Source: a virus. Taken from it: a DNA stretch of 45,544 nt. The stretch covers positions 1-45,544 of IMG/VR virus record IMGVR_UViG_3300014205_000077, one strand, 5' to 3'. Below the pieces are notes generated by a model. That model saw only the letters and a list, made by a program, of their open reading frames with translations, ran no database searches and was not told where the DNA came from. Shown here one piece after another: positions 3,279 through 38,854 of the stretch. Position 1 is the first letter of the stretch; the number at the start of each line of letters is the position of its first letter. A program made the translations under genes and the position numbers.

Positions 3279-3529
3279 TATTTGTATCCCTCCTTTCTAA
3301 AGATATTGCACCATTGGTCAACTGTTTTAATTGGATGTTTATACCTTTTACTCTTTACAATGTGTTCTTTATACATTCCTGTTTCCGTATCCATATAAAA
3401 AGTAACTTGTTTTTCAATAACTTGCGGGTCGTTGGGACTACATATCATTATAGTTTTCTCTCCCTTGCCCATTTTTTGTAATGCAAAAATTTTTCTAATC
3501 ATAGCATACTTTTTTCCTGCACTTGGCAT
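3278..3529 (-). CDS. hypothetical protein (83 aa from ATG 3529)
   Basis: GGGAGGTGGGGAA-ATG RBS at 3529. Confidence 0.5.
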   Translation of the reverse strand: MPSAGKKYAMIRKIFALQKMGKGEKTIMICSPNDPQVIEKQVTFYMDTETGMYKEHIVKSKRYKHPIKTVDQWCNIFRKEGYK

Positions 3530-3726
3530 TTCCCCACCTCCCACATACTACATCTGGCAATGATTATTGCTTGTGTAGGTATAACTTTTATATGTGCGTA
3601 TATCTCACATACTTCCCGATGTCCACAGTTGCCACAAGTTCGTTCCTGCAACTTATCAAGTTCAGCTACAAGTGAATCCTTTTTAACCTTGACGCTTTTT
3701 TTAAGTGCATTGAGTTTTGGTTTCAT
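3499..3726 (-). CDS. Cys-rich hypothetical protein (75 aa)
   Basis: CGNCGHREVC motif; operon context. Confidence 0.5.
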   Translation of the reverse strand: MKPKLNALKKSVKVKKDSLVAELDKLQERTCGNCGHREVCEIYAHIKVIPTQAIIIARCSMWEVGKCQVQEKSML

Positions 3727-3911
3727 TATTTAGTTTCCCTATCTTTTTTTATCCTTTCTGCTAATTCAATAATCAAATCATCCTTTTCTATAAGCAACTG
3801 TTTTAACTTTTTCCAATCGGTTTTTTCTCCTTGAAACTCGGCAATTTCTATCGTCTCAATATCCTGCCTATTTTTTATAATGGACAGTTCTATATCTGTT
3901 CTTGTTCTCAT
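3726..3911 (-). CDS. small charged coiled-coil-like protein (61 aa)
   Basis: Start and stop both coupled to neighbouring genes. Confidence 0.5.
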   Translation of the reverse strand: MRTRTDIELSIIKNRQDIETIEIAEFQGEKTDWKKLKQLLIEKDDLIIELAERIKKDRETK

Positions 3912-4423
3912 TTATTTCCTTTAATTGTTTTTAACACGTTTTCTATTGTATAGAATGGGTATATTGGTAATGTGTTCCAATTCAATCTATCAAAAATATT
4001 ATCTATATCCGTTTGAAATTCTTTAGAGGTTGAACGGAAACAATCATTTTTTAAGTGAATTGGTTTACATCTAAAAATATAATCGTAAGTTTCTGCCCAA
4101 TTATATACAAATTCTATAATAGGAGAACATTCATCTTCTGCTTTCCTTATCATATACGCATAAACATCAATTACACTTCTATCACATATCAAATAATCAA
4201 GTCCTTTTTGTTTACTTACTTCTATTTCTCGTTTAATTTGTGTTGTCAACATCCACATTTGAGTTTCAAAAGTTACTTTCTCATTGACAGGAAACGGACA
4301 CTCTCTTGCTACTTCCTGCAAAATATAAACATTCTTATCTAATTTCTTTAACGCACTTGCTAACTCGTAACAATGCGTAGTCTTATTCGCCCCGTGTGTT
4401 CCTATAAATGCTATCTTTAACAT
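3908..4423 (-). CDS. P-loop NTPase / kinase-like protein (NadR/AAA_28-like)
   Basis: Walker A GTHGANKTT near the N-terminus, QEVARE and ICDRSVIDVYAY segments. Confidence 0.6.
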   Translation of the reverse strand: MLKIAFIGTHGANKTTHCYELASALKKLDKNVYILQEVARECPFPVNEKVTFETQMWMLTTQIKREIEVSKQKGLDYLICDRSVIDVYAYMIRKAEDECSPIIEFVYNWAETYDYIFRCKPIHLKNDCFRSTSKEFQTDIDNIFDRLNWNTLPIYPFYTIENVLKTIKGNK

Positions 4424-4432
4424 TTTTCCTCC

Positions 4433-4792
4433 TTATCTATGATATTTAACCCAAACTGTTTGTCCTGTTCTTGTTATTCCACCCCTCCAATGCAATCCAT
4501 CACTATCCACATTTTCAAAATGTCCATCAGTATAATATTCCCGCTTTTCAATTTCCTTGCCATTTTTTTTAACAGTAACTACCATTACACTATCTATCGT
4601 AATATCGGGAACAATTTTGTTTAACGAATTAATCATACTTTCTTGTTGCTTTTTAATTTCATCTATTTGAAAATAGATTTGGTCAACAGCGACATTTGTT
4701 TCTTTTGTTCTTTGTTTTCCATCCAAACAGAATATAAAAACTAAGCAAATACATATCAATAAACCCAACCATCTTCCTTTTTTATCTATCAT
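4433..4792 (-). CDS. membrane-anchored protein (119 aa)
   Basis: N-terminal TM WLGLLICICLVFIFCL. Confidence 0.55.
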   Translation of the reverse strand: MIDKKGRWLGLLICICLVFIFCLDGKQRTKETNVAVDQIYFQIDEIKKQQESMINSLNKIVPDITIDSVMVVTVKKNGKEIEKREYYTDGHFENVDSDGLHWRGGITRTGQTVWVKYHR

Positions 4793-5253
4793 CTTTCCTC
4801 CTTAAAAACTTTCTTCTTTTGTATTCCCCATTGTATAGCTTCTTTTCTATTTCTACCATAATATAAATCTATTTTTTTGTTATTCTTTTCGTGTGTTCTG
4901 TCAACAACCAAACACCAACCAACATCTTCTATAAATATATTTGTAAACAATGGCAAGAAATTACAAGCAATGACCTTTCTATAATCTCTTACTGTATCCA
5001 ACAACCACCCCGAACCCTCACAAAGGAACGGGGTGGCATCAGTCTCTCTTCTATAACTACAATAAGCAGTAACCTCAACACATCCAACAAACTTCATAGG
5101 ACAATCTGTAGTTGTTGTTAAACTATCTATAGACTGTTGCAAGTCAATCTTATCCTGTTCTAATCGTTCCATCTGTAGTCCTTGTTTATAACTTGTATCA
5201 AAACTGATACAAACTACAGCTGATAGCAACAACAATAAGATTCCCCTTTCCAT
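4789..5253 (-). CDS. secreted 3D-domain (RlpA/MltA-like double-psi barrel) cell-wall protein
   Basis: Signal-like N-terminus; VEVTAYC...VIACNFLPLFTNIFIEDVGWCLVVDR...KIDLYYG follows the 3D-domain pattern. Confidence 0.55.
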   Translation of the reverse strand: MERGILLLLLSAVVCISFDTSYKQGLQMERLEQDKIDLQQSIDSLTTTTDCPMKFVGCVEVTAYCSYRRETDATPFLCEGSGWLLDTVRDYRKVIACNFLPLFTNIFIEDVGWCLVVDRTHEKNNKKIDLYYGRNRKEAIQWGIQKKKVFKEER

Positions 5254-5628
5254 TTAGTTAATCCCTCTTTTCCATCTTTCCCACGCATTGAGTTTTGGTT
5301 TCTTCATTTCTTTTATAGTGTTTTCCAATTCTGAAACCCTTTTCGCCAATCTAAAGAGTTCTACTGTATTCTTATCGTTTAATATAGCTTTCCTTTTTGC
5401 TATTGCTTCTTGTATAGATTCCTCAAATTGTTTATCGCTTTTAGTCGTTCTGTAAACATAAAATTCTACGTTGTAATAACAAGTAGGAGTGGCAAAAGGA
5501 CTATATCCATAACACATTCTTTTTGGGATAATAGTGTCTCCAAAATATTCAGACAATATTTCTGCATTTGTTTTTCCGACATCATTCATTACAATCTTTT
5601 CAGAGTTTTTTCTCTCAAAATTTTCCAT
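5254..5628 (-). CDS. hypothetical protein (124 aa)
   Basis: ORF with RBS AGGAGATAA-ATG. Confidence 0.55.
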   Translation of the reverse strand: MENFERKNSEKIVMNDVGKTNAEILSEYFGDTIIPKRMCYGYSPFATPTCYYNVEFYVYRTTKSDKQFEESIQEAIAKRKAILNDKNTVELFRLAKRVSELENTIKEMKKPKLNAWERWKRGIN

Positions 5629-5754
5629 TTATCTCCTTTCTGCTTTTTTTGCACCACACTTTTCACATACCCATATAATCTTGTCGTAGTATTGATAGTC
5701 TGGCATCCATTTATGGAAACATATACCAAAGGTTCTCTCTAACCATTCTATCAT
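5629..5754 (-). CDS. small Cys/His protein (41 aa)
   Basis: My translation MIEWLERTFGICFHKWMPDYQYYDKIIWVCEKCGAKKAERR; fills the gap between the two genes exactly. Confidence 0.35.
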   Translation of the reverse strand: MIEWLERTFGICFHKWMPDYQYYDKIIWVCEKCGAKKAERR

Positions 5755-6792
5755 TTATCCTCCTATTGGTATTGCAACTCCACAATCTGGACTCGGACAT
5801 ACCCAGAATGGTTTTCCATCCACATCTATCTTGTCCATATTCTCTCCACAAGTGCATTTTCTTGTTGTAGGAACTACGCCTTTCGCATCCTGTTGTGTCT
5901 TATAAAGAGCAGTAAGAGTTGCTCCTAATCCTATAACTCCCTTGTCTTTATCTCCAGTCCATTTGTCTATACATTTCTTTATTACATAGTAGTCATTCCC
6001 TGCCAATGCTTTTCCAAACTCAAAGTAAGTATCTTTTGCCAACTTTTTGTTCTCTTCGCTATCCCAGTTTGTATGTTGTAACAAATGAGATTTTGTAATG
6101 CTCGCAATCAATGAACTCATCTTCGTAGATGCTTTATATTTCGGCTCTACAGATGGAGGTGGAGGAGGAGTTGGAGTTATCGTTTCGGCATTCTTTCTTG
6201 GTAACTTGTCAAGGAAACTAATATTCGCCTCCGCTTGAGTAAAAGTATATTTAGGATGGTTCGTTGCTATCTGATTATACTTGTCAACATCTATCTTTAC
6301 TATGTTCAGTAGAGACAATATCTTTGTGATTTGTTCTGGAGTTATCAATGGCTCTGGCTTACCTACTTCTATCTTTTTGTCTGTTGCTTTTCCACCTCTT
6401 CCCTGGGCAACCTCTGCATCATTGTCATCTTGGGTTGGCGTAAGCATAATCATTGAAGCCAGTCCATATCTTCTTGCATAAGTTACTGCACTTCCATTAG
6501 ATTGTGGGTCATTCTTTACTGGATTGATTTTTAATTTACCACTAATCCATTCTCCAGAAGTATGTAACAATATCGTCTCCATTACATTTTCCCCACTAAC
6601 CACATCTGATGGTTGCAACACGCACAACCCGTTCTTCGTAAGTATTTCTTGACAGGAATCCCAACACATCTTTAGGTCGGCATATTTTGAGTGGAAAAAA
6701 GGATTCACTTTTCCCGCATATACAGAAGTTAGTTCTTTCTGAACTGCATTCATCGCCTTTGCTATTTCTATTATACTTTCTGAATGTTCCAT
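5755..6792 (-). CDS. erf: ERF-family single-strand annealing protein with C-terminal zinc ribbon
   Basis: NPFFHSKYADL, LLHTSGEW, GSAVTYARRYGL and DDND segments are typical of ERF; C-terminal CTCG...CPSPDCG. Confidence 0.85.
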   Translation of the reverse strand: MEHSESIIEIAKAMNAVQKELTSVYAGKVNPFFHSKYADLKMCWDSCQEILTKNGLCVLQPSDVVSGENVMETILLHTSGEWISGKLKINPVKNDPQSNGSAVTYARRYGLASMIMLTPTQDDNDAEVAQGRGGKATDKKIEVGKPEPLITPEQITKILSLLNIVKIDVDKYNQIATNHPKYTFTQAEANISFLDKLPRKNAETITPTPPPPPSVEPKYKASTKMSSLIASITKSHLLQHTNWDSEENKKLAKDTYFEFGKALAGNDYYVIKKCIDKWTGDKDKGVIGLGATLTALYKTQQDAKGVVPTTRKCTCGENMDKIDVDGKPFWVCPSPDCGVAIPIGG

Positions 6793-6998
6793 TATTCCTC
6801 CGTTGCATATACCGTGTAATCATATGCTCTAACTATCCCACCAACTATACTCCCATCATTATTTTCAATTACACAGGAAGTCTGGGTTACAAAATCTATA
6901 TTCTCATTCCCAGTAAAAGCACTTTCCAACCAAACGTTTGCTAACTTCTCTACATCTTCTGGTGTTCCTTTGAACACCTTGACCTTATGTTTATCCAT
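6792..6998 (-). CDS. hypothetical protein (68 aa)
   Basis: ORF coupled to erf. Confidence 0.5.
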   Translation of the reverse strand: MDKHKVKVFKGTPEDVEKLANVWLESAFTGNENIDFVTQTSCVIENNDGSIVGGIVRAYDYTVYATEE

Positions 6999-7007
6999 CT
7001 TCCCCTC

Positions 7008-7208
7008 CTATTTTATCTCACGAATTCTTCTATAACTTAAATTAATCCATTTAGAAACATCATAATATTTATCGTTTATTGCTTTAAAACTTATTTTTCC
7101 ATCTATAATATAAAATACACAAACATCTATATATTCCGCAGAATCTGGAGAGACTTCTAAAGACACCCATTTAATCAGTTAGTGTTTACCGTATAGTTTT
7201 ATCTTCAT
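7008..7208 (-). pseudogene. small all-beta paralog family member interrupted by an in-frame TAA at codon 10 (7179-7181)
   Basis: My translation MKIKLYGKH*LIKWVSLEVSPDSAEYIDVCVFYIIDGKISFKAINDKYYDVSKWINLSYRRIREIK; carries family motif IDGKISFKA. Confidence 0.5.
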
Positions 7209-7226
7209 AGTTTACGTAGCCATATA

Positions 7227-7430
7227 CTATTCTTCTGTCAATTCAATAATATTGTGCGTGATCCTATTAACAGTAATCTCAACCACATTATTTGTTTCAC
7301 TGTTTACACCTGTGCATCTGTGCATATATATTTTTCTATCAGGGCTAATCAAAAACCACAATATAAGTCCGCTATCAGTCCATACGGATGGGGTATGGGT
7401 TAGACTTGCTTCTGCAAGATATGCTTTCAT
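7227..7430 (-). CDS. small all-beta paralog family member (67 aa)
   Basis: ATGA coupling at 7427-7430; SPDRKIYMHRC motif; C-terminal ELTEE. Confidence 0.55.
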   Translation of the reverse strand: MKAYLAEASLTHTPSVWTDSGLILWFLISPDRKIYMHRCTGVNSETNNVVEITVNRITHNIIELTEE

Positions 7431-7618
7431 TCTTCCACCTCTCGTATCATTCCTTCGCTTAAGTTCAATGGGCATCCTATATGTTTATACATATGTTTAT
7501 ATATAGATATTTTTCCAGAACGCAATAAAGCAAATTGAACAATCTTTTCTCTTACTATTCCGTTATCCATTAACATAACTTCAACGTCATTCCCAGAATT
7601 GCACAACGATATTTTCAT
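7427..7618 (-). CDS. small all-beta paralog family member (63 aa)
   Basis: MKISL start; SGKISIYKH motif; ATGA coupling at both ends. Confidence 0.6.
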   Translation of the reverse strand: MKISLCNSGNDVEVMLMDNGIVREKIVQFALLRSGKISIYKHMYKHIGCPLNLSEGMIREVEE

Positions 7619-7824
7619 TCTATCTCCGTCAATTTAAGATGGTCAAGATTGAGCAATCCTCTTCCTACTGGCGTTCTCATATCATTATTAACCCAAAAAC
7701 AATTCCCAAAATATATTTTATCACCAACTATCATAAAACATCCAATCCGTATGTCCCGTATCGTAGGAGTTGTTATACTTACAAACACAAAATCATTATT
7801 TGTTATTTCAAGTTCTATAGTCAT
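7615..7824 (-). CDS. small all-beta paralog family member (69 aa)
   Basis: VGDKIYFGN motif; ends TEIE, with GGAGATAGAATGA embedding the next gene's RBS. Confidence 0.6.
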   Translation of the reverse strand: MTIELEITNNDFVFVSITTPTIRDIRIGCFMIVGDKIYFGNCFWVNNDMRTPVGRGLLNLDHLKLTEIE

Positions 7825-7825
7825 T

Positions 7826-8803
7826 TTATTCTTTAATCTCTTTTAGCCCAAATCTTGTTGTCAATTCAACTCCAGCATATTGGGATAAGGTCTCATCCTT
7901 CTTTAATATTTTCTTGAAATTGGTAATATTACAAGTCAATACTTTTTTGTCAACATATTCTTTCACTTTCTCCAAACTATTTAATGAATTGACAAATGCC
8001 ATTGTGTCAACCGTAGTTTTTGTTGAATCAAAATTCCCTATTTGTTTATCTCCGAAAGTTATTATCCCTTCTTTCTCGCATAAAGCTTTGACTAAATTCT
8101 CGCTTGCTGATGCCTGTGCCTTACTTCTCAACCACTCTTGAATTATAATGTCTCTATTCTCTCCTTTTAAGGGACTATTGCAAGACAGTGGATGATTGCA
8201 CCAATTACACCACGCACTTGGATTTATATAATTATGTTCCTTGCCCATCACTTCTTTAGCCAATGTGATATCCCTTGCGATTTCATTCTTTAACATACCC
8301 ATACTTGAGCCATCGTAAGTTTCCCCATACAACAACCATCCTCTTGGGGCGGAATATATTGCAGTATGTATCTTGTCTAATGGGTTTATATCTAACAAAG
8401 CATACGCATAATACCTTAATTGTTTCTGATATAGTTCGGACACATCATACAAATATGCAGACTTACAATCTACTATTAACAAATCCCCATTAGGCAAGAC
8501 AAGAACCTTATCTATCTTATACCTAACACTATCTTCTCCCATTAAGAAACCACCAGCAAATTCCTCATCCCATTGAGATTGGAATGGTGGCAAATTCTTA
8601 GGTGTGTGTTCTGTTATTCTTTCCAATTCTGTCCAATTCCCACTCTTTATCCCAGAATAGAAAGCTAAGTGCATCGACTTCCCATTCGCTTGGTTTTCTG
8701 TCTCAAGTATCTCCTGAACAACTCCTTTCAATCTAAGTGCCTTTTCTCGGTCACATGGCACACATAGATTGGAATGACTATAATGTATCCTTTCTTCACT
8801 CAT
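7826..8803 (-). CDS. Cas4/RecB-like PD-(D/E)xK exonuclease with Fe-S cysteine cluster
   Basis: LLIVDCKSA (D-x-K), QLRYYAYAL (QxxxY), N-terminal Cys plus CNWCNHPLSC (C-x2-C-x5-C). Confidence 0.75.
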   Translation of the reverse strand: MSEERIHYSHSNLCVPCDREKALRLKGVVQEILETENQANGKSMHLAFYSGIKSGNWTELERITEHTPKNLPPFQSQWDEEFAGGFLMGEDSVRYKIDKVLVLPNGDLLIVDCKSAYLYDVSELYQKQLRYYAYALLDINPLDKIHTAIYSAPRGWLLYGETYDGSSMGMLKNEIARDITLAKEVMGKEHNYINPSAWCNWCNHPLSCNSPLKGENRDIIIQEWLRSKAQASASENLVKALCEKEGIITFGDKQIGNFDSTKTTVDTMAFVNSLNSLEKVKEYVDKKVLTCNITNFKKILKKDETLSQYAGVELTTRFGLKEIKE

Positions 8804-8969
8804 CTTTTACCTCCTGTATAAAATTATAAAACGCATTCCATTTGAAAAAAACTATCTTACCGTTTTCTATTGTAAAACTAAAAACTATTGTATCTCCAAG
8901 CCAACATCTAACTCTTTTCGCATCTTCTTTATCATCTCCGTAAGCTTTATTGTTTAACTTTATTTTCAT
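8796..8969 (-). CDS. small all-beta paralog family member (57 aa, below the ORF-track cut-off)
   Basis: My translation MKIKLNNKAYGDDKEDAKRVRCWLGDTIVFSFTIENGKIVFFKWNAFYNFIQEVKDE; ATGA coupling at 8966-8969. Confidence 0.55.
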   Translation of the reverse strand: MKIKLNNKAYGDDKEDAKRVRCWLGDTIVFSFTIENGKIVFFKWNAFYNFIQEVKDE

Positions 8970-9160
8970 TCTATCTCCAGTATTTCTTCCCTTCTATCCA
9001 TATTGGCAACAACTGAAATAAATGCCGACTGTTTTATATTCCATTTATAAATACATAACTTACCTTTTCCCTCTATTTTTTTTACAATGCTAATAATTTT
9101 TATATCTCCAACATTAATTCTTATTATCTCATTATCTATTCTTTCTAATATTATATTCAT
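8966..9160 (-). CDS. small all-beta paralog family member (64 aa)
   Basis: GKGKLCIYKW motif; ends LEIE; ATGA coupling. Confidence 0.6.
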   Translation of the reverse strand: MNIILERIDNEIIRINVGDIKIISIVKKIEGKGKLCIYKWNIKQSAFISVVANMDRREEILEIE

Positions 9161-9336
9161 TTTATTGTTTCTATTTTACGTATTTTATTCTTATTGATAT
9201 TCTCCATACGATATAAATAATATTTATATAAACTTATCTTGTTTTTATCATATGTCTGTAGAAATCCAACTACAAGTTGCTTATCTAACTTAATTGCAAC
9301 TTCACGCTCATCATATATTTCTATTGTTATTTTCAT
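9157..9336 (-). CDS. small all-beta paralog family member (59 aa, below the ORF-track cut-off)
   Basis: My translation MKITIEIYDEREVAIKLDKQLVVGFLQTYDKNKISLYKYYLYRMENINKNKIRKIETIK. Confidence 0.55.
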   Translation of the reverse strand: MKITIEIYDEREVAIKLDKQLVVGFLQTYDKNKISLYKYYLYRMENINKNKIRKIETIK

Positions 9337-9343
9337 ATATTCC

Positions 9344-9592
9344 TTACATTAAACTTAATTGCTGTGGTGGTTTCTTTACCCATATATATTTGTGTCTATC
9401 AACTGTTCCATCTTCTTTTTTCGGATGTTCTATAATCTTACTCTCACAAAGAATTCTTGCCTTTCTTGTGGCAGTCCCGCCCATCATACCACCAAAACCA
9501 ATTCCCCATTTCTCAATATCCCAAGTTGCCATCTCTCCACCATTGCATATTTCTTCTTCTATATACTTCCTAACCTTTTCTAATTGTGTCAT
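9344..9592 (-). CDS. hypothetical protein (82 aa), possibly a winged-helix protein
   Basis: ORF within the array; no family motif. Confidence 0.5.
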   Translation of the reverse strand: MTQLEKVRKYIEEEICNGGEMATWDIEKWGIGFGGMMGGTATRKARILCESKIIEHPKKEDGTVDRHKYIWVKKPPQQLSLM

Positions 9593-9600
9593 TCCTCCCC

Positions 9601-9798
9601 CTAATCTATCTCTTGTATTGCGTTTCTTATTATCATATATACAATATTGGCATCATCAACATTTACACTTCCAATAAATCCATTGTCTGACTTTCGGAAT
9701 TGGAATACCCTACAATTATCTACTCTAACTTCTCGTATCCAAAAGATTGCATAAGCCCTATCTTCATTGTATCTCCTCCATACCTTCAAAATAGCCAT
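9601..9798 (-). CDS. small paralog family member, start uncertain (possible frameshift relative to the coupled ATG at 9767)
   Basis: SDNGFIGSV motif; ends IQEID; canonical coupled ATG 9765-9767 opens only a 15-codon frame. Confidence 0.4.
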   Translation of the reverse strand: MAILKVWRRYNEDRAYAIFWIREVRVDNCRVFQFRKSDNGFIGSVNVDDANIVYMIIRNAIQEID

Positions 9799-9976
9799 CT
9801 GCTTCTATATCACGATTCTCTTCTGTATTAGTAAAAACGCAATCGCATAAATCGTATTTCCATAGTCCAATCTTTTTCTTTGTAATATTCAAACTAAAAA
9901 GACTTACATCTTCTTCCTCTTCGTGAATTGCTTTACAACAAATCGTTCCCAATTCTACTATCAGTTTTATTTTCAT
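9764..9976 (-). CDS. small all-beta paralog family member (70 aa)
   Basis: MKIKL start; KKKIGLWKY motif. Confidence 0.55.
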   Translation of the reverse strand: MKIKLIVELGTICCKAIHEEEEDVSLFSLNITKKKIGLWKYDLCDCVFTNTEENRDIEADGYFEGMEEIQ

Positions 9977-10182
9977 TCTATTATTCTTGGTTTTGTGCCC
10001 TTTCCCATATTAAACAATCTGGTAAATTGGTTAGTCCACATTTTCATTACAATCTTATTGTTTATAATCCTAAAATCAACAACAGCCCAATGGGAAGTGT
10101 CTATCCCCACTTTATCATATAGTCTCAACCGAATACATCCTTCGCTTTTTATCAAATCTTCTAATCCAAATTTACATTTCAT
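9973..10182 (-). CDS. small all-beta paralog family member (69 aa)
   Basis: INNKIVMKMW motif; ends RIIE; ATGA coupling. Confidence 0.6.
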   Translation of the reverse strand: MKCKFGLEDLIKSEGCIRLRLYDKVGIDTSHWAVVDFRIINNKIVMKMWTNQFTRLFNMGKGTKPRIIE

Positions 10183-10183
10183 T

Positions 10184-10366
10184 TTATTCTATTTCCTTTA
10201 GGCTGTGATTTGTCCCCGTTGTATTACACATATCTTCATTTTGCCAATCCCAATAGTGCAAAACTATTTTGTCATTGCACATAAAAAATTCAAACAGAAT
10301 ATAATCCATATATCTAACTTCTAACTTTTTCTCTGATGAGAATCGTTGGGTTATATATATCTTCAT
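10184..10366 (-). CDS. small all-beta paralog family member (60 aa)
   Basis: MKIYI start; CNDKIVLHYW motif; ends KEIE. Confidence 0.6.
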   Translation of the reverse strand: MKIYITQRFSSEKKLEVRYMDYILFEFFMCNDKIVLHYWDWQNEDMCNTTGTNHSLKEIE

Positions 10367-10367
10367 T

Positions 10368-10625
10368 TTACAAGTCCTTTATTTTACCACCTTCAATCGT
10401 CTCAAACACTTTTGGATTTAAGTTTTTCATCTTCCTTAAAGATAATTTCCCATTATCCATTACTTGCAACTGTATCACTTTGTTGAATGGCTCGTCAGTC
10501 CCTTTCTCTTTACAACTTATCGTAACCAAATTGCCACCATCAGTTGACTCTGCTATAAATTCAAAATCCCCTATTGTGGCGGAGTCCCCCTCGCCACTAT
10601 CAACTTCTCTAATTTCTTCATCCAT
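10368..10625 (-). CDS. paralog family member with acidic N-terminal extension and a Gly-Gly five residues before the C-terminus (85 aa)
   Basis: MDNGKLSLRKM family motif; ...FETIEGGKIKDL end; RBS AAGGGGGAATAAA-ATG directly after the JAB gene. Confidence 0.6.
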   Translation of the reverse strand: MDEEIREVDSGEGDSATIGDFEFIAESTDGGNLVTISCKEKGTDEPFNKVIQLQVMDNGKLSLRKMKNLNPKVFETIEGGKIKDL

Positions 10626-10645: not shown

Positions 10646-11515
10646 TTAATATCCATCTCTTCCATACTGTTTATTAAACAAATCCTCTTGTTGATTCAAC
10701 AAATCCTCTTGTTGATTCAACAAATCCTCTTGTTGATTCAACAAATCTTCTGCCGCCTTATCACTGTTCCATTCCCTTATTGCCAAGTCAATCTTTGCGT
10801 CTTTATCTGTCTTTGGCGACTTACTATCCTTTCTAATCCAAATTCCCGATGCTGGGTAGTATTGGTAATTATCAAACAAATACTGTTTGGTTTCGGCATC
10901 CAATAACGCAGAAAGGAATTGCTCTGGTCTATCTTTTGTTAATTTAGGTTTATCATAGGCAACCGTAGATGGTGCAGTATAAACGTGGTCTCGTATATTC
11001 CTTTCTATAGCATTAAATATATCTGCTGGTATTTCTATAGGAGTTTCAATCGTTGCCTTTACCATAAAGTAAAGGCTATCAGAGACTTTCAATCTCAACC
11101 TATTGTCTATTATATTCCCATCTGGGTCTAATAGAATAGAGCAATCGTAATTCTTGTTAATACTTTCGTGGTCATCTACACTAAAGGAACTTACCGAAGA
11201 TGGATGTCTATGAAAAAACACATTCCATTCTGAACTTGGGTGGTCTATAATATCCACCGAAGCATACTTCACTTCTTGGGTAGGAACTAATATCTCCTGC
11301 TTTAATTCAAATCCCTTATTGGTCGTAACTCCCTTGCAAACAAAGGCGAATTCATCACCTTTATGTTTCTCATTTACCTTTATGCACATATTCTTAATGA
11401 GACTTTGGAAATCCTGTGCAATTCTAATAACAGGTTCTTTCACATTCACCCCATTATCCCAACGAGTAAGGTTGTCTTGAGAATTGGGATTCTTCCCCCA
11501 ATTATGTTTTCCCAT
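10646..11515 (-). CDS. JAB/MPN (JAMM) metallopeptidase, deubiquitinase-like, with C-terminal heptad repeats
   Basis: Exact JAMM motif H-x-H-x7-S-x2-D in FHRHPSSVSSFSVDD (codons at 11171-11212); RBS TAAGGAGGAAGA-ATG; C-terminal EDLLNQQ x3. Confidence 0.85.
   Translation of the reverse strand: MGKHNWGKNPNSQDNLTRWDNGVNVKEPVIRIAQDFQSLIKNMCIKVNEKHKGDEFAFVCKGVTTNKGFELKQEILVPTQEVKYASVDIIDHPSSEWNVFFHRHPSSVSSFSVDDHESINKNYDCSILLDPDGNIIDNRLRLKVSDSLYFMVKATIETPIEIPADIFNAIERNIRDHVYTAPSTVAYDKPKLTKDRPEQFLSALLDAETKQYLFDNYQYYPASGIWIRKDSKSPKTDKDAKIDLAIREWNSDKAAEDLLNQQEDLLNQQEDLLNQQEDLFNKQYGRDGY
10679..10752. repeat. 21-bp tandem repeat x about 3.5 (caaatcctcttgttgattcaa) encoding EDLLNQQ heptads in the JAB C-terminus
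   Basis: Three perfect copies at 10679-10741 plus a diverged partial copy. Confidence 0.9.
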
Positions 11516-11524
11516 TCTTCCTCC

Positions 11525-12742
11525 TTACCAAACATCTTTTGTAGCTTTCAAATCGTTAATAAGCTTTCGTAAATCCTTACATAAACTATTATCTATTTTG
11601 TAGTAAGCAGAATCAAAATTTATAATCTCTAATAGAGTTTGTATCTTAGTTACAAATTCTACTATTGTGCATTGTGCCATATCTCCCAAACAAATATCTC
11701 CATTCTCTTCTGTATGATAATTTCTAATGTTCGGGTGTGGAAATTCGCCCTTCAATCGTGCCAATGCACAATCAATCTTCCCACTATCTCCAATATGCCC
11801 AGAGATATCATATACTTCTCTCTTCTTTCCCATTTCATCTGGGATTGGATAGTATTTTCCCTCATACACACATTTCCTGGGAATAATATTCATTTCCAAT
11901 CCCAACGTATTATCTGAAAGAGTAACCTTATACCTATCCTTTATTGACATTGCATCTGTAAACCCCTTTGCAAAAACTTTATGTTCATTCCTTTTCGTTT
12001 CTTCCAATTCTCTATTCATAATTTCTAATTTTGAGATTATCTGTCTTTCCTTTATACTAAAAAGAGTATTCATTGTGTTTTTGTATTGGGCTATCTGTTT
12101 GTTATAGATTTCCCTATAAACCAATCCAATAGCATTTTCTTCGGAAGAGGAAATTTCTTTCATCGTAGTTTCTATCTCATACCATTTCCCCTTTACATTC
12201 ACTGTAGGTTTTGACATCAACACGGACAAGGTATTCTCTTGGCTATCACCCACTACATTCAAACTACCTGTATGCAAGAAAGAACTTCCAAAATTAGAAA
12301 CGCATTCCATTATAACAGATTCGCAATCTTGCAAGAAGTTATCCCTATATTTGAATTCATTCCAGAACTTCTTAAATCCATCACAATGGATGCCAAAGTT
12401 TCCATCTTTGGCGTGATATGTTTTCCCTGTATCGTCAAATTCAATATTCCACAGTTTCTTTAATTTGCTATAGAAAACTGAATGCCTAATTCTACCAGCT
12501 ATTACTTCATCTTTGAACCCTTTTTTTATCCCGTCTTTGTCAAAGATTCCGTATAGCGTTTTATCTTTAAGTTTCTCAAGGAACAATTCTTCCTTAATTT
12601 CCTTCTCCGTTTTCACTGTCGGAACTATCGCTTCCTCCGATGTTGACAAAGGCACTGCTGGGGTCTCCGACACCGATGGATTTAACTCCACCATTCCCGA
12701 TTGTGGGGTTGGATTCGTTGTGTCTTGCGTTATAGGTTGCAT
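11525..12742 (-). CDS. E2 (UBC-like) ubiquitin-conjugating-enzyme-like protein with a roughly 270-aa N-terminal extension
   Basis: FPHPNIRNYHTEENGDICLGD (HPN 11729-11737; Cys codon 11690-11692) followed by FVTKIQTLLEIINFDSAYY; GGAGG RBS favours ATG 12742 over GTG 12751. Confidence 0.8.
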   Translation of the reverse strand: MQPITQDTTNPTPQSGMVELNPSVSETPAVPLSTSEEAIVPTVKTEKEIKEELFLEKLKDKTLYGIFDKDGIKKGFKDEVIAGRIRHSVFYSKLKKLWNIEFDDTGKTYHAKDGNFGIHCDGFKKFWNEFKYRDNFLQDCESVIMECVSNFGSSFLHTGSLNVVGDSQENTLSVLMSKPTVNVKGKWYEIETTMKEISSSEENAIGLVYREIYNKQIAQYKNTMNTLFSIKERQIISKLEIMNRELEETKRNEHKVFAKGFTDAMSIKDRYKVTLSDNTLGLEMNIIPRKCVYEGKYYPIPDEMGKKREVYDISGHIGDSGKIDCALARLKGEFPHPNIRNYHTEENGDICLGDMAQCTIVEFVTKIQTLLEIINFDSAYYKIDNSLCKDLRKLINDLKATKDVW

Positions 12743-13475
12743 CTTCTTCACCTCCTATCTCTTCTACGATTGGCTTTTCTACTTTTATCGTTTTTATCAC
12801 TTTCGGTTTCTTTATCTTTTTTACTTCTCCAAACATCTTATTAAGCAAATCCACTACATCAATAGTAATTCTTGCAGTTGGATTATATGATTTGCTTTTC
12901 TTCACATCTTCTCGGAACAATACATTCATACACAACATCCAAGCGTTAAGTATCTGGGGCATTAAAAAAGCACCATCTGTATAACTAACAGATTCTCCCC
13001 ATACTGCTTCCATATTTGGATTCATCCAACCGCTAACACTCCTTCCGTTATTCCCAATATGTAATGGGAACGCTTCTTTCAATACGGGAAGATGCACATC
13101 CCTACAATCCAAGAAAACTATATTTGGATTTTTCTTGTCATCTAAAAACACCTTCTGCAACTCCTCATACTTGGCATCCCATTGTTCTACAGCCATATAA
13201 TCCATTCTATAGCTTAATAGGATTTCTGCCAAAGCTTGCACCTTTTTCTTACCAATATCTTCCAATCGGTAAGGACTTCTATTCAAATTAACTGCCTCCA
13301 CTGAATCAAAATCCACAAGAACTATCTTGCGACATCCTGACAGTGCGAGGAAAAGGGACACCCAACTCCCAACTCCACCACATCCTATGATTACAGCTTT
13401 TTCTGGTATCTGCAACCCTTTTATACTTAATTGCCTATCATATATATTCATAGGCAATTCTGTTATTCCATCCAT
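12594..13475 (-). CDS. E1-like (ThiF/MoeB/UBA family) adenylyltransferase
   Basis: IYDRQL, GCGGVGS nucleotide-binding loop, VLVDFDSVEAVNLNRS, LDCRD; Lys-rich then acidic tail overlaps the E2 start. Confidence 0.85.
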   Translation of the reverse strand: MDGITELPMNIYDRQLSIKGLQIPEKAVIIGCGGVGSWVSLFLALSGCRKIVLVDFDSVEAVNLNRSPYRLEDIGKKKVQALAEILLSYRMDYMAVEQWDAKYEELQKVFLDDKKNPNIVFLDCRDVHLPVLKEAFPLHIGNNGRSVSGWMNPNMEAVWGESVSYTDGAFLMPQILNAWMLCMNVLFREDVKKSKSYNPTARITIDVVDLLNKMFGEVKKIKKPKVIKTIKVEKPIVEEIGGEEDATYNARHNESNPTIGNGGVKSIGVGDPSSAFVNIGGSDSSDSENGEGN

Positions 13476-13490: not shown

Positions 13491-13679
13491 TTAATCTATT
13501 TGTTTCATCTCTTTGTATCCTCCGACAACATTACTATATTTTGTATTCAATTCGTAATGCTTTTTCATTACTATTTTATAGTTACCATTCCTTTCAAAAT
13601 GCACAATAAATGGATTCATTACTCCTTCAATAAAAACTTGAATTGTATTCCCTCCAATTTTTTTAATAGATATTTTCAT
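13491..13679 (-). CDS. small all-beta paralog family member (62 aa)
   Basis: MKISI start; NGNYKIVMKK motif; ...NVVGGYKEMKQID end. Confidence 0.6.
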   Translation of the reverse strand: MKISIKKIGGNTIQVFIEGVMNPFIVHFERNGNYKIVMKKHYELNTKYSNVVGGYKEMKQID

Positions 13680-13680
13680 T

Positions 13681-13863
13681 TTATTCTACCTCTTCTATTT
13701 GTCCATCATTGTTATTGCAAGAATTTTTATTCACAAAAAAATATTTATGGATACATATCTTCCCATTTGCAATGTAAAAATAAATTATCATTGTATTAAA
13801 TTTCATATCGTTCCCAAAAAGTGTAACATCAAGGCGTTCGCTTCCTTGCAATTTTATTTTCAT
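13681..13863 (-). CDS. small all-beta paralog family member (60 aa from coupled ATG 13863)
   Basis: MKIKLQ start overlaps the upstream stop (ATGA); ANGKICIHKY motif; ends IEEVE. Confidence 0.6.
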   Translation of the reverse strand: MKIKLQGSERLDVTLFGNDMKFNTMIIYFYIANGKICIHKYFFVNKNSCNNNDGQIEEVE

Positions 13864-14072
13864 TCTATTGTTTTTATATCGCAATCATAATCATTGTCAA
13901 AATTTATATATTCACCATTACATCCTTGATTTTTATACAACACAATCTTTCGTTTTAGAATTCTAAAAAATGCTATATTCCCACAATGGATATGTTTTCC
14001 ATTTTCTATTAAATGTATTTGATAGTCTTTTATCTGATGGCATTCTATTTCTTTTACTTCTATTTTAATCAT
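13860..14072 (-). CDS. small all-beta paralog family member (70 aa)
   Basis: KRKIVLYKN motif; ends KTIE. Confidence 0.6.
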   Translation of the reverse strand: MIKIEVKEIECHQIKDYQIHLIENGKHIHCGNIAFFRILKRKIVLYKNQGCNGEYINFDNDYDCDIKTIE

Positions 14073-14073
14073 A

Positions 14074-14277
14074 TTAATCTATTTCCTTCAAATTCCCACC
14101 TTTTACATAAAGAGAGTTTATTCCTGTTTCTTTTTTTAATATTATTTTATTATTCCTCTTTTTGAACATCACTAAATGTCCATTCCCAATGTTTCTTTTA
14201 TCTATAAATATAGCAACTGATATCCCACCATATACGTAATTTGATTTATTGTCAAATACTTTTATTTCTATTTTCAT
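14074..14277 (-). CDS. small all-beta paralog family member (67 aa)
   Basis: MKIEIK start; RNNKIILKK motif; ...YVKGGNLKEID end. Confidence 0.6.
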   Translation of the reverse strand: MKIEIKVFDNKSNYVYGGISVAIFIDKRNIGNGHLVMFKKRNNKIILKKETGINSLYVKGGNLKEID

Positions 14278-14377: not shown

Positions 14378-14671
14378 TTATCCTTTCTTTGGCACTTCTA
14401 AACGATTTATATAAATCGTCTGTGCGGTGGTTAAGGGGAAAATTGAAGGCATCATATCTCTACCTGCACTGTCCTGTATCGTTGAAGTTGCAAAACTCGC
14501 ATCCTTTGCAATCTTCCTTACAGTATTCGCAGTAAGAGGACATTTCTCTTCAATCCTCTTATTCCCTGGGAGGACTATCGTTACATACTCATCTTTCTTT
14601 ACTATTTTCTTTGCAACTGCTTTTTTTGCAACTATCTTTTTAGTTGCCGATTTTTTCGTTACTTTTTTCAT
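14378..14671 (-). CDS. Lys-rich N-terminal tail fused to a putative beta-grasp (ubiquitin/ThiS/MoaD-like) domain ending in a terminal Gly
   Basis: KKVTKKSATKKIVAKKAVAKKIVKK tail; then a beta-beta-alpha-beta-beta pattern (YVTIVLPG / RIEEKC / TANTVRKIAKDA / TSTIQD / TIYINRLE); last codon GGA (14381-14383) before TAA. Confidence 0.45.
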   Translation of the reverse strand: MKKVTKKSATKKIVAKKAVAKKIVKKDEYVTIVLPGNKRIEEKCPLTANTVRKIAKDASFATSTIQDSAGRDMMPSIFPLTTAQTIYINRLEVPKKG

Positions 14672-14904
14672 CTAACATTCCCTGCCATATTGGTTTTATC
14701 CTTTGGTTTATCCAAAGAAATGTCAATATGACTATTATTCTCTTTTCTAAATCTACCACCGCATATTTCACATACGATTGGCAATTCCCTATCCGAGTAG
14801 TGCAATGCTATCACCTGTTGCTCGGTCAACCCTTTATCCCTTACGAGGGACTGATTCTTCTGAACAATAGAGCAATCTCTACGTTCAGAATTTGAACATT
14901 TCAT
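14668..14904 (-). CDS. hypothetical protein (78 aa)
   Basis: RBS GGAGGTAGG-ATG; ATGA coupling to the downstream gene. Confidence 0.55.
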   Translation of the reverse strand: MKCSNSERRDCSIVQKNQSLVRDKGLTEQQVIALHYSDRELPIVCEICGGRFRKENNSHIDISLDKPKDKTNMAGNVR

Positions 14905-14924
14905 CCTACCTCCTTTGTTATAAA

Positions 14925-15236
14925 TTATTCTTTCAATATAATTAAACCTTTATCGCCAGAGCCAGAGCCAGAGCAATCGCCAGAGCCATCGTCAGAGCCA
15001 TCGCCAGAGCCAGAGCCAGAGCCATCGCCAGAGCCATCGCCAGAGCCATCGCCAGAGCCATAGCCATCGCCAGAGCCATAGCCATCGCCAGAGCCATAAC
15101 CAGAGCCATCGCCAGAGCCATCGCCAGAGCCATCGCCATCGCCAGAGCTATCGCCATCGCCATAGCCATAACCAGAGCTATAGCCATAACCAGAGCCATC
15201 GCCAGAGCCATCGCCATCGTTTTTTATTTTTTCCAT
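14925..15236 (-). CDS. hyper-acidic Gly/Asp/Ser/Tyr repeat protein, (GDGSG)n, about 103 aa
   Basis: MEKIKNDGDGSGDGSGYGY...GSGDGSGDGSG...; RBS AAGGGGAG before ATG 15236; underlying 6/12-nt DNA periodicity. Confidence 0.6.
   Translation of the reverse strand: MEKIKNDGDGSGDGSGYGYSSGYGYGDGDSSGDGDGSGDGSGDGSGYGSGDGYGSGDGYGSGDGSGDGSGDGSGSGSGDGSDDGSGDCSGSGSGDKGLIILKE
14946..15218. repeat. degenerate 6/12-nt tandem repeat (gccagagccatc-like) encoding (GDGSG)n
   Basis: Visible periodicity across about 270 nt. Confidence 0.9.
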
Positions 15237-15610
15237 ATCGCAACTCCCCTTATGCTTATCCTTGCCTGTTCTGTGCAAGGTATTATCTCTATTGCTTCTG
15301 TTAAAATTATTCTTGTAACTTCACAAGGAAATTTACAAGAATTTGGATTTGCCACCCCATCCATTGCTAATTGAGACAAAGAAGCCGCACCATTCCAATA
15401 CCATAACCTTCTGGCATTCTTCATTTCAACTTCTTTCCCATTCCTTTTGACTAAATTCCCTGCAAAAACACCTGCGGATTGTGTTCTAACTACAACATAA
15501 TCCTTTTCTACCTTTTTAGAGACAGAAACTGAATCTAATGGAATGTATTTTTTCCCATTTATTTCCACAACATTCCCACCTGTTTCTTTTATACTCAATC
15601 CTTTAATCAT
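15224..15610 (-). CDS. conserved-looking hypothetical protein (128 aa)
   Basis: GGGAGG RBS favours ATG 15610; contains ARRLWYWNGAASLSQLAMDG. Confidence 0.6.
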   Translation of the reverse strand: MIKGLSIKETGGNVVEINGKKYIPLDSVSVSKKVEKDYVVVRTQSAGVFAGNLVKRNGKEVEMKNARRLWYWNGAASLSQLAMDGVANPNSCKFPCEVTRIILTEAIEIIPCTEQARISIRGVAIWKK

Positions 15611-15623
15611 TTCAATCACCTCC

Positions 15624-18952: not shown

Positions 18953-19029
18953 TGGGGTAAGGGGTGGGAATTAGACCAACGATTACTTGTTTCACAGACA
19001 AGCGCCTTATCCACTTGGCTACCCTTACC
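18953..19029 (-). tRNA. tRNA-His (anticodon GUG) with encoded G-1 and 3' CCA
   Basis: Hand-folded cloverleaf: G-1, acceptor GTAAGGG/CCCTTAC, D-loop AGTGGATA, anticodon stem CTTGT/ACAAG with loop CTGTGAA, T-arm GTTGG-TCTAATT-CCCAC (one mismatch), C73, CCA. Confidence 0.75.
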
Positions 19030-19331: not shown

Positions 19332-19403
19332 AGCCACTGGGGAGAATCGGACTCCCAGTCCCCTGTTTACAAAACAGGCGCTTGTCCATTAAGCTACAGT
19401 GGC
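19332..19403 (-). tRNA. tRNA-Thr (anticodon UGU)
   Basis: Perfect cloverleaf: GCCACTG-TA-GCTT-AATGGAC-AAGC-G-CCTGT-TTTGTAA-ACAGG-GGACT-GGGAG-TCCGATT-CTCCC-CAGTGGC-T. Confidence 0.85.
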
Positions 19404-23438: not shown

Positions 23439-23502
23439 GCGTAAACTTTATAAAAACAAAAAGATATTAAAAATAAAAAGATAAAAAGATTATTATTTAT
23501 AC

Positions 23503-23530
23503 TTGACAAACCTTATATGATTGTTATAAT
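23503..23530 (+). promoter_or_regulatory. rightward (structural arm) consensus promoter TTGACA-16-TATAAT
   Basis: cTTGACAaaccttatatgattgtTATAAT; about 18 nt identical to the promoter at 38855. Confidence 0.75.
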
Positions 23531-23543
23531 GTTGCATATTATA

Positions 23544-35372: not shown

Positions 35373-35474
35373 TGAACGTTCATAAATCAATAACCTATAT
35401 GGGTATTGTAGAACATAGGCAAGGTGTTTTATTCCTTGCCACAAGGAGAAAATGAGCATAGAAAAAAATTATGC

Positions 35475-35503
35475 TTGACACTTGCCTTATCGTGCATTAT
35501 GTA
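35475..35503 (+). promoter_or_regulatory. possible internal promoter (TTGACA-17-TATGTA)
   Basis: atgcTTGACA shared with the 38851 copy; weak -10 element. Confidence 0.35.
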
Positions 35504-38844: not shown

Positions 38845-38854
38845 TTATTTATGC

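Follow-up and report, generated by a model that had tools for sequence, protein, structure and literature searches.

Does a bacterial virus encode its own pathway for ubiquitin-type protein tagging, and what could it gain from it? The question is raised by IMG/VR record IMGVR_UViG_3300014205_000077, a viral DNA of 45,544 nt which we analyzed over its whole length (referred to here as the window). A first-pass annotation, based on the letters of the sequence, had read three consecutive genes as the E1, E2 and JAB enzymes of a ubiquitin-type cassette. Translation confirmed the three minus-strand open reading frames (ORFs) together with every motif quoted for them, and profile comparisons assigned each protein to its enzyme class. 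The picture of a three-gene cassette was extended by a fourth gene at 14378–14671, which encodes a candidate ubiquitin-like modifier (Ubl). Overall, we estimate a probability of about 70% that the window carries a self-contained four-gene Ubl conjugation module. Many uncultured phages have the same kit of genes.

The cassette is conserved in diverse viral contigs

Related loci were fetched with an alignment of the E1 protein and then sorted by local hidden Markov models (HMMs). An all-against-all comparison of the neighborhoods (+/-6 kb) of 14 cassette loci showed that only four protein families are common to them, namely E1, JAB, E2 and Ubl. E1 and JAB are encoded in all 14 loci, E2 in 13 of them according to BLAST and in 14 according to HMM searches, and the Ubl in 10 according to BLAST, or 11 including the copy of the window, which was detected by HMM only. 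Syntenic cassettes, a search for which had been suggested in the first-pass annotation, are thus found in virus databases, with E1, E2 and JAB together in 13 further loci. The cassette loci are IMG/VR viral contigs of 30–322 kb or metagenome contigs. Their usual gene order is Ubl-E2-E1-JAB; in L112 and L113 it is Ubl-E1-E2-JAB-JAB, which matches the order in the window, with no gene between Ubl and E1 in L112. The two tandem JAB genes of L112 are located at 6771–7634 and 7769–8383.

HMMs built without the window's own sequences were scored against 477 ORFs of the window and singled out exactly the cassette ORFs, with E-values of 4e-46 for E1, 6.1e-30 for JAB and 7.8e-26 for the E2 domain. Because these models find exactly these ORFs, and because the motif residues correspond to invariant columns of the families, the E1, E2 and JAB motifs are not chance occurrences.

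A scan of one genome each for 185,579 species revealed the cassette in two short contigs of metagenome-assembled genomes among the 80 loci that were kept. Pairs of E1 and JAB genes for which no E2 was detectable are commoner in viral contigs (e.g., L006, L010, L015, L019, L022 and L024). Querying a collection of cultured phages with the E1 protein led to Flavobacterium phage FpV4 (L138, NC_041872.1 60292-68501), in which the JAB protein gp51 (HIHSHNTMAVFFSGTD) is encoded directly upstream of the ThiF-like gp50, annotated as 'thiamine biosynthesis protein'; the carriers are cultured F. psychrophilum phages. The neighboring FpV4 protein gp52 contains a stretch, H-S-H...F-C-I-G-S-E-D, that faintly resembles the E2 motif and gives no match to the E2 HMM. 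Another viral contig, L028 (IMGVR_UViG_3300027896_000067), carries a row of five such genes, three E1-like ORFs (369–1043, 3116–4657 and 5701–7098) and two JAB ORFs (2103–2831 and 4670–5491), an arrangement that recalls the three ThiF/E1 homologues of the Nidhogg viruses of Helarchaeota. A blastn search of 50,697 phage records with the 4-kb cassette region gave no match. In the full-text literature that we covered, which leaves out most subscription journals, we found no description of a phage Ubl-E2-E1-JAB module.

A minimal E1-like protein with an invariant tyrosine

The E1 gene encodes the motifs IYDRQ, GCGGVG (13368–13385), NLNR and DCRD. Residues 26–105, and only these, match the Pfam family ThiF (PF00899) with 71.3 bits against a cut-off of 28.1 bits (Table 1), in line with the earlier designation of the protein as ThiF/MoeB/E1-like. 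PADLOC models for Cap2 ('E1-E2') match the Rossmann part only (3.6e-14), and the ThiF, MoeB and TcdA models of NCBIfam match far under their family cut-offs (73.8 vs. 159 bits). When a profile of 18 phage relatives was compared to the PDB, it retrieved TcdA, ThiF, MccB, PaaA, UBA5, NAE, Uba1, BubCD and Cap2 with E-values from 1e-23 to 2e-14, and again the matches are confined to the Rossmann half. Since the matches cover this half only and the NCBIfam scores stay below the cut-offs, we assign the protein, by sequence, to the E1-like superfamily and to no named subfamily.

Residues 1–215 form the conserved core of the E1, and a low-complexity tail (residues ~216–293) is absent from all relatives, which are single-domain proteins of 191–287 amino acids (aa). 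The E2 gene overlaps the 3′ end of the E1 gene by 149 nt in another frame, and this overlap (12594–12742) encodes low-complexity tails of both proteins. Ten residues are invariant in the 18 relatives (G31, G33, G34, G36, D57, N63, R66, K78, D126 and Y165), and the codons of the motif residues were checked in the window by translation. Following the literature on ThiF and MoeB, D57, N63, R66, K78 and D126 are predicted to bind the nucleotide and Mg.

The family alignment shows no conserved cysteine after DCRD. Cysteines are present in the window E1 at positions 32, 48, 124 and 182, and the E1 of L001 has only the Cys of DCRD. As judged from this alignment, the window E1 lacks a catalytic cysteine and is reduced to a single domain. 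Tyr165 is located about 40 residues after DCRD, between a strand motif (G-Y-D-G..V.I..N-P) and a hydrophobic helix. Alignment by hand suggests that it lies in the crossover loop, as placed in ThiF-type enzymes, and we consider it a candidate catalytic nucleophile or hand-off residue. The E1 proteins of Bub systems are also Cys-less; the sole invariant residue of their crossover loop is a tyrosine (Y370/Y342, with Y370 in BubCD), and its mutation abolishes conjugation (PMC11601596).

The E2-like protein ends in a divergent UBC domain

The ATG at 12742 is the best choice of E2 start, because an AGGAGG is found 8 nt upstream; this supports the start chosen in the first-pass annotation. No Shine-Dalgarno sequence precedes either of the alternatives, the GTG codon at 12751 or the start called in the database at V46. 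Along the protein, a disordered N-terminus and ~190 aa of unrecognized fold are followed by a long helix and, at the C-terminus, a UBC-like domain; the N-terminal extension amounts to ~235 aa. The motif peptide FPHPNIRNYHTEENGDICLGD carries HPN at 11729–11737 and its Cys codon exactly at 11690–11692.

By itself, the window E2 matches no Pfam family at E <= 1 and nothing in PADLOC, NCBIfam or a phmmer search of the PDB, and PHROGs gave E-values of 0.009–0.07 at best with E2 and JAB. Among 5.8 billion proteins, a word-indexed search recovered nothing but the E2 itself or, with the E2 alignment as query, only P0006 and the E2 itself, and a metagenome scan with the window E2 protein gave no relative. 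An exhaustive HMMER search identified seven distant homologues (E-values from 1.7e-11 to 7e-4). In their alignment the H and N of HPN, the C, G and D that follow, and N.DSA are invariant. On its contig, the gene for one of the homologues, P0006, immediately precedes genes for ThiF and JAB proteins, and in the 13 further loci the E2 family always adjoins E1 and JAB. Cys351 and Ser378 do not vary across 20 E2 sequences, and Pro337 and Gly353 are each found in 90% of them or more; the His and Asn positions of HPN vary in a minority (FPH, YPH, SPH, HCN and HVN). The distance from HPN to Cys is 12 residues in the window and 6–8 in most relatives. In UBC enzymes generally it is about 7 residues.

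A full-length E2 profile gave sub-significant PDB matches (UBE2L3 at 0.035), almost all of which are E2 enzymes. With a profile of the C-terminal ~170 aa from 20 sequences, UBE2C was matched at an E-value of 4.7e-4 (23.3 bits), and the best 60 PDB matches are essentially all UBC E2s. The alignment to UBE2C spans HPN, Cys, the next helix and an N-(L/I)-D-S element that corresponds to PNIDSP of UBE2C. Two of 16 relatives match Pfam UQ_con at 0.019 and none matches Prok-E2 at E <= 0.1; among the E2-containing models of PADLOC, no member of the family found a match.

The AlphaFold 2 (AF2) model of the E2, built on an alignment of eight sequences, has a mean predicted local distance difference test score (pLDDT) of 51, with block means of ~70–82 in the UBC region and ~47–58 around the HPN-Cys loop. 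Its elements are arranged as a long helix, a four-strand meander, an active-site loop and three helices. In a Foldseek comparison of the model to the PDB, E2 enzymes occupy ranks 2–6, 8, 9, 11, 13, 15 and 16, covering ~150 residues, with probabilities of up to 0.69, target-normalized template modelling (TM) scores of 0.35–0.46 and E-values of 0.25–0.8, none <= 0.001; a comparison to the viral BFVD was uninformative. Since the window's own E2 and JAB match nothing and the case rests on the family, the 'canonical UBC signature' ascribed to the E2 holds for the window protein at the motif level only. From the family comparisons we conclude that the C-terminus of the E2 belongs to the UBC family, as a divergent member whose HPN-Cys site is of the classical type.

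The N-terminal part of the E2 is highly variable among the phages, and the total length of the proteins lies between 198 and 622 aa. One N-terminal motif, YHAKDGNFGIHCDGFKKFW, of the form H-x2-D-x2-F-x3-4-C-D/E-G-F/W, is kept in P0003–P0007, L001 and L002, whereas L005, L007 and L009, with longer proteins, do not have it. The motif might bind a metal or form another active site.

The JAB protein retains all catalytic residues

The ATG of the JAB gene is found 9 nt past the E2 stop codon, with a GGAGG in between. Its peptide HRHPSSVSSFSVDD at 11171–11212 comprises H102-x-H104-x7-S112-x2-D115, and Glu55 is encoded at 11351–11353. E55, Q80, H102, H104, S112 and D115 are invariant in 21 JAB sequences, 16 of which match Pfam Prok-JAB (best 1.9e-9) and two JAB/MPN. 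The family profile matches AMSH-like sst2 in the PDB (2.6e-9) and also AMSH, Rpn11 and AfJAMM. Thus, the exact JAMM motif reported in the first reading is borne out by the family. The window JAB alone gave no match in Pfam, PADLOC, NCBIfam or PDB sequence searches, and the word-indexed search returned only a 98%-identical copy. A few family members match the Cap3-type JAB models of PADLOC, and these matches are weak. With its catalytic residues complete, the JAB can be expected to be an active enzyme.

The C-terminal ~100 aa of the JAB are variable and carry a tandem repeat in the window (Table 1). In a second public copy of the phage (ENA, 45,451 bp), the JAB protein has 282 aa, i.e., it is 7 aa shorter, at 98% identity, indicating that the repeat number varies between isolates.

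A fourth family of small proteins includes a candidate modifier

An HMM of ten homologues from cassette loci, with the window excluded, found a sole significant match among the 477 ORFs, the 97-aa protein (E = 1.9e-5); its pairwise comparison with the L001 protein gives an E-value of 0.002. The homologues are encoded directly upstream of E2 or E1 in L001, L002, L004, L008, L012, L013, L030, L031, L110 and L112, and in L001 and L002 the ORF that precedes the E2 gene is 72–82 aa long. The window protein has a Lys-rich N-terminal tail (residues 1–27), a core of ~70 aa and the end ...RLEVPKKG.

Neither sequence nor profile searches gave a significant Pfam or PDB match for this family, and the window protein has no direct match in Pfam, PADLOC, NCBIfam or PDB sequence searches. 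The profile produced a weak list of PDB matches at E >= 0.09, mostly the B1 domain of protein G, whose fold is classed with the beta-grasps, and one relative matches Pfam ThiS-like at E = 0.15. A single-sequence AF2 model (pLDDT 53) shows the beta-grasp-like DSSP order b-b-a-b-b-b; Foldseek found nothing significant for it in the PDB. We take the 97-aa protein to be a probable beta-grasp Ubl.

The C-termini of the family share the ending ..[YF]-[ND]-x-[AP]-[KAG]. It is terminal in YNEAA, FNVAA, YNEAK (twice) and YDEAG, and about half of the family continue for one to five residues beyond it (-SR, -Q, -SI, -GRGY or -YLWIA). The window protein ends in ..EVPK-KG, with Lys-Gly as the extra residues. 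Together with the obligatory JAB, these extensions suggest that a pro-protein is trimmed.

The Lys-rich tail of 27 aa is histone-H1-like, with weak HC2/H1 matches. In L005, L007 and L009, contigs of 86–322 kb, the E2 gene is preceded by genes for proteins of ~200 aa in which a Lys-rich linker leads to a C-terminal portion that resembles the Ubl and ends in NKAA, NKAA and DKGA, respectively (weak HMM matches, E = 0.37–3). A possible helix-turn-helix (HTH) N-terminus was looked for in these longer proteins and not confirmed. The Lys-rich tail and the longer proteins are hints of DNA-associated modifiers.

Genome context of the cassette

An exact direct repeat of 123 nt at both termini (1–123 = 45422–45544) implies a complete genome, either circularly closed or terminally redundant, with 45,421 unique bases. 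Together with the portal, major capsid protein and TerL genes, the repeat substantiates the earlier reading of the window as a complete phage genome, and it indicates a tailed phage of ~45.4 kb. The cassette is located in the leftward, non-structural arm, more than 10 kb away from the portal, capsid and tail genes. As reported before, it has neither a CD-NTase nor an effector gene beside it; its neighbors are genes for small paralogous proteins, DUF6948, an exonuclease and ERF. A promoter and terminator scan gave no delimitation of the cassette operon, and no integrase-sized recombinase was evident among the larger ORFs of the left arm by inspection only.

Repeated elements of ~60 nt with a near-consensus TTGACA-N17-TATAAT precede late-gene blocks and are likely late or middle promoters for a bacterial sigma-70-type polymerase. 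These elements and the strong Shine-Dalgarno sequences point to a bacterial host. The host cannot be assigned further, since the relatives of the capsid protein are only 26–29% identical and infect many phyla.

The cassette is flanked by two tandem arrays of small paralogous genes, as the first-pass annotation had described. They encode 12–13 proteins of 57–85 aa that start with MKI, share a central N-K-I-x-L-x-K-W/Y and end in ..EIE or ..EID; eight or nine of the genes follow the JAB gene. Adjacent genes are joined by overlapping stop and start codons (ATAGAATGA) or separated by gaps of 1–3 nt, and the EIE/EID C-termini coincide with the overlapping stop/start and the ribosome-binding sequence of the next gene. 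The family has no PHROG match and was found in none of 138 other loci; by this comparison, the paralogues are not part of the conserved module. We also considered them as alternative Ubls and rejected this, as the family is window-specific and unrelated to the conserved small protein.

Further upstream, at least 18 copies of a 12-nt tandem repeat (14904–15245) encode a GDGS-repeat protein, the ORF of which overlaps the 3′ end of the DUF6948 gene. The sign of the local GC skew changes in the 17.5–20.3 kb region, which carries both tRNA genes.

Table 1. Positions of the cassette genes, their main elements and other features of the window; the last row refers to three related contigs.
Feature	Position	Strand	Basis or remark
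JAB/JAMM (MPN+) metalloprotease, 289 aa	10646..11515	-	invariant JAMM residues, family profile
21-nt tandem repeat, (QEDLLNQ)n, x3	10668..10751	-	JAB C-terminal tail
E2-like protein, 405 aa	11525..12742	-	homologues from exhaustive HMMER search
UBC-like catalytic domain, aa ~237-405	11528..12034	-	family conservation, PDB profile
UBC-domain features: HPN aa 336-338, Cys351, G353-D354, N375-F-D-S-A379	11606-11620 (N375-F-D-S-A379)	-	
N-terminal E2 motif, aa 109-127	12362..12418	-	sub-family conservation
Minimal E1-like adenylating enzyme, 293 aa	12594..13475	-	Pfam ThiF (E = 8.6e-20), family profile
E1 Tyr165	12981..12983	-	sole invariant residue between DCRD and C-terminal helix
Four paralogous genes, 62-70 aa, between Ubl and E1	13491..14277	-	alignment
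Candidate ubiquitin-like modifier, 97 aa	14378..14671	-	HMM of 10 homologues from cassette loci
Paralogue arrays	8796-10625, 13491-14277, probably 7430-7633	- (all)	
ERF recombinase	5755-6792	-	leftward arm
PD-(D/E)XK exonuclease	7826-8803	-	leftward arm
Gly/Asp/Ser/Tyr low-complexity ORF (GDGS repeats)	14925-15278	-	
DUF6948 gene	15224-15619		just upstream of Ubl region
tRNA-His(GTG)	18953-19028	-	
tRNA-Thr(TGT)	19332-19403	-	
TerL	20371-21867	-	leftward arm
SU10-type portal	23517-25193	+	rightward arm
Major capsid protein, SU10-type	26134-27339	+	rightward arm
~60-nt repeated element, near-consensus TTGACA-N17-TATAAT	23471-23530, 35450-35509, 38823-38882		in front of late-gene blocks
~200-aa pre-E2 proteins	L005:3435-4064, L007:3243-3878, L009:3526-4239		contigs 86-322 kb

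Comparison with known conjugation systems

Among the characterized systems, Bil (BilABCD; type '6d' of Iyer et al. 2006; 'ISG15-like') likewise has separate genes for a Ubl, a Cys-type E2, a JAB and an E1, and in the absence of an E3 its E2 is presumed to choose the targets. In contrast to the Bil E1, which is composed of an inactive and an active adenylation domain and a Cys domain, the window E1 is one domain of ~215 aa without the Cys. The E2s of the 6d type do not have the classical His position (PMC1779556), whereas the window E2 has a classical HPN, and Bil Ubls end in a conserved Gly, which the phage Ubl family does not. Moreover, the cassette is phage-encoded, whereas Bil is found on bacterial chromosomes. 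In PADLOC, the window E2, JAB and Ubl have no match, and the E1 matches only Cap2-type models among the 25 of 33 matches that were listed; the presence of Bil models under that name in PADLOC v2 was not confirmed.

With Bub ('6E'/DUF6527) the cassette has in common a minimal, homodimer-type E1 without a crossover-loop Cys and with an invariant Tyr, if its placement in our alignment is right, and a JAB that in Bub matures the Ubl C-terminus. However, the Bub E2 uses a Ser (oxyester) and has no C-terminal UBC helices, whereas the Cys of the phage E2 is invariant and helices are modeled after its active site. Bub proteins are also fused (Ubl-E2, JAB-E1 or E2-E1) and always accompanied by BubE/DUF6527, whereas the phage genes are separate; DUF6527 was not seen among the window proteins scanned, and there is no fifth family common to the cassette loci. 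Type II CBASS, with Cap2 (an E2-E1 fusion) and Cap3 (a JAB), resembles the cassette in its E1, E2 and JAB enzymology without a dedicated E3, and the Rossmann region of the phage E1 matches Cap2 in PADLOC (3.6e-14) and in the PDB (3.6e-15). In contrast to CBASS, E1 and E2 are separate genes in the phage and a dedicated small modifier replaces the CD-NTase C-terminus. As there is neither a CD-NTase nor an effector, the cassette is not a CBASS system.

The E2 profile aligns with the eukaryotic UBC enzymes UBE2C, UBE2D and UBE2L3 in the HPN, the Cys, the helix and the N-x-D-S loop, and the AF2 model, of low overall confidence, predicts an order of helix, four-strand meander and helices. It differs from them in that the window E2 fails to match Pfam UQ_con, has a 12-residue gap between HPN and Cys and a ~235-aa N-terminal extension, and is encoded by a phage. 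Virus-encoded ThiF/E1-like proteins with a proposed interface to ubiquitin-type systems are also known from the Nidhogg viruses of Asgard archaea, which encode ThiF/E1-like homologues only and are presumed to hijack the E2 and Ubl of the host (bioRxiv 10.1101/2021.07.29.454249). In contrast, the window phage encodes the whole pathway, and its promoters point to a bacterial host.

Discussion

How could the four proteins work together? In the mechanism that we propose, the minimal E1 would bind ATP-Mg via its Rossmann motifs, which are present in the protein, and would adenylate the C-terminus of the 97-aa beta-grasp-like protein. As the E1 has no crossover-loop cysteine, the activated Ubl might then either pass through Tyr165 as an oxyester, similar to Bub, or be attacked directly by the E2 Cys. 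Cys351, at the position homologous to the UBC active site, would carry the Ubl as a thioester, and the Asn of HPN would help to pass it on to an amine of the target. The N-terminal region of the E2, which varies from phage to phage, would probably select the target without an E3, as presumed for Bil E2s. Finally, the JAB would trim the C-terminal extensions of a pro-Ubl, in line with the pattern of Ubl endings, and/or reverse the conjugation. Given its location next to recombination genes and others with non-structural functions, the module probably has its substrates among the proteins of the host or the phage in the course of infection. Counter-defense or host takeover would be our guess at its role. 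The roles put forward in the first-pass annotation (counter-defense, superinfection exclusion, modification of host or virion proteins) are likewise hypotheses.

Several points weigh against a self-contained Ubl conjugation module. The window E2, JAB and Ubl have no direct match in Pfam, PADLOC, NCBIfam or PDB sequence searches. The Foldseek E-values of the E2 model are not significant (best E2 match 0.25) at a mean pLDDT of 51, and for the putative beta-grasp fold of the Ubl the pLDDT is 53, with neither Foldseek nor PDB profile matches at a significant level. The Ubl family does not have the C-terminal Gly or Gly-Gly that is conserved in all characterized Ubls, and in the window its gene is 0.9 kb away from E1, separated by four unrelated paralogue genes. 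The position of Tyr165 in the crossover loop comes from an alignment by hand with no structure behind it, and the enzymology of the whole cassette is deduced from sequence. Moreover, no target, E3 or effector is identifiable.

On the self-contained module we can build a more specific reading, which we put forward tentatively. Tailed phages of bacteria might own a complete pathway with a so far undescribed hybrid chemistry, in which a minimal Cys-less E1 with a catalytic Tyr, or direct transfer from the adenylate, feeds an HPN-Cys E2, and which is used offensively early in infection; we regard this as possible, at clearly less than even odds. With similar reserve, the variable N-terminal domain of the E2 might serve as a built-in E3, and the tagged proteins might be host proteins, e.g., defense or nucleoid proteins. 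The DNA-binding-like appendages of the Ubls, i.e., the Lys-rich tail and the possible HTH of L005, L007 and L009 that was looked for and not confirmed, might conceivably point to DNA-associated targets. Equally tentative is the suggestion that, among families of prokaryotic viruses, the E2 comes nearest to eukaryotic UBC enzymes in its sequence.

The same enzymology could also have a defensive role, in which competing phages are tagged in a Bil-like manner (superinfection exclusion or inter-phage warfare). All characterized prokaryotic systems with Ubl, E2, E1 and JAB (Bil), as well as Cap2/Cap3, are anti-phage (PMC11601596; PMC13276650), and a variable N-terminal domain of the E2 fits an arms race with any target. 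We nevertheless consider a defensive role unlikely. Searches with PADLOC gave no match to E2 models, few and weak matches to JAB models and, for the E1, a match to the Rossmann part of Cap2 only. Defense systems are mainly chromosomal, whereas the cassette is nearly absent from cellular genomes (two short contigs of metagenome-assembled genomes among the 80 loci kept). As no integrase-sized recombinase was evident in the left arm, again by inspection only, long-term residence as a prophage is not indicated either.

Improbable, in our view, is a sulfur-carrier or cofactor system of the ThiF-ThiS, MoeB-MoaD or CysO-Mec+ kind, in which a thiocarboxylate would serve the thiolation of nucleosides, tRNA or metabolites, the JAB would mature the carrier and the Cys protein would relay the sulfur. 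Short ThiF, TcdA and MoeB proteins are indeed the best NCBIfam and PDB matches of the E1, related Flavobacterium phage genes are annotated as 'thiamine biosynthesis protein ThiF', and sulfur-assimilation clusters with JAB, E1 and ThiS-like genes are known (PMC1779556). However, the ThiF/MoeB matches are restricted to the Rossmann half and stay far under the cut-off (73.8 vs. 159 bits), and the homology of the Cys protein is to UBC enzymes and extends to the HPN. In contrast to ThiS and MoaD, the phage Ubls have no conserved terminal Gly-Gly; they end in AA, AK or AG or are extended (KKG in the window). A conserved sulfur-transfer partner is missing as well: with only four families common to the loci, there is no conserved rhodanese, ThiG/ThiH, MoaE or cysteine desulfurase.

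We regard it as even less probable that the JAB alone matters, as a deconjugase of host Ubl or cGAS conjugates (anti-Bil or anti-CBASS), next to E1 and E2 proteins that are degenerate or unrelated. Cap3-type JABs do antagonize CBASS priming (PMC13276650), and some further viral contigs, as well as FpV4, have paired E1 and JAB genes for which no E2 was detected. But E1, E2 and JAB are found together in 14 loci, with a Ubl-family gene in 11 of these, and their catalytic residues are invariant despite pairwise identities of 20–35%, which argues for purifying selection on the whole pathway. A function in virion assembly is the least plausible of all: the lambda/T1 proteins TAPI (Ubl) and TAPK (JAB and NlpC), the only phage Ubl-JAB pairing that we found described (PMC1779556), do pair a beta-grasp protein with a JAB peptidase, but they belong to a structural gene cluster with an NlpC/P60 domain and without E1 or E2, whereas the cassette has E1 and E2, lacks NlpC/P60 and is located among non-structural genes, at a distance of more than 10 kb from those for portal, capsid and tail.

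So far, Ubl conjugation in prokaryotes has been characterized as an anti-phage weapon, in CBASS (Cap2/Cap3), Bil and probably Bub. If the self-contained phage module is real, a conserved phage-borne version would show the opposite side of the conflict using the same chemistry. Under the tentative reading of an offensive use, it would mirror Bil and be the prokaryotic equivalent of the manipulation of ubiquitin by viruses in eukaryotes. In cultured phages, genes annotated as 'thiamine biosynthesis protein ThiF', such as FpV4 gp50 with its adjoining JAB gene, are probably misannotated. The module would offer a tractable four-gene system for what a bacterial virus gains by tagging proteins. It would also add a new E2 family in which the HPN-Cys features are classical, and, independently of Bub, a second lineage of E1s that have a Tyr and no Cys; both bear on the evolution of E1-to-E2 transfer and on how the UBC fold of eukaryotes originated.

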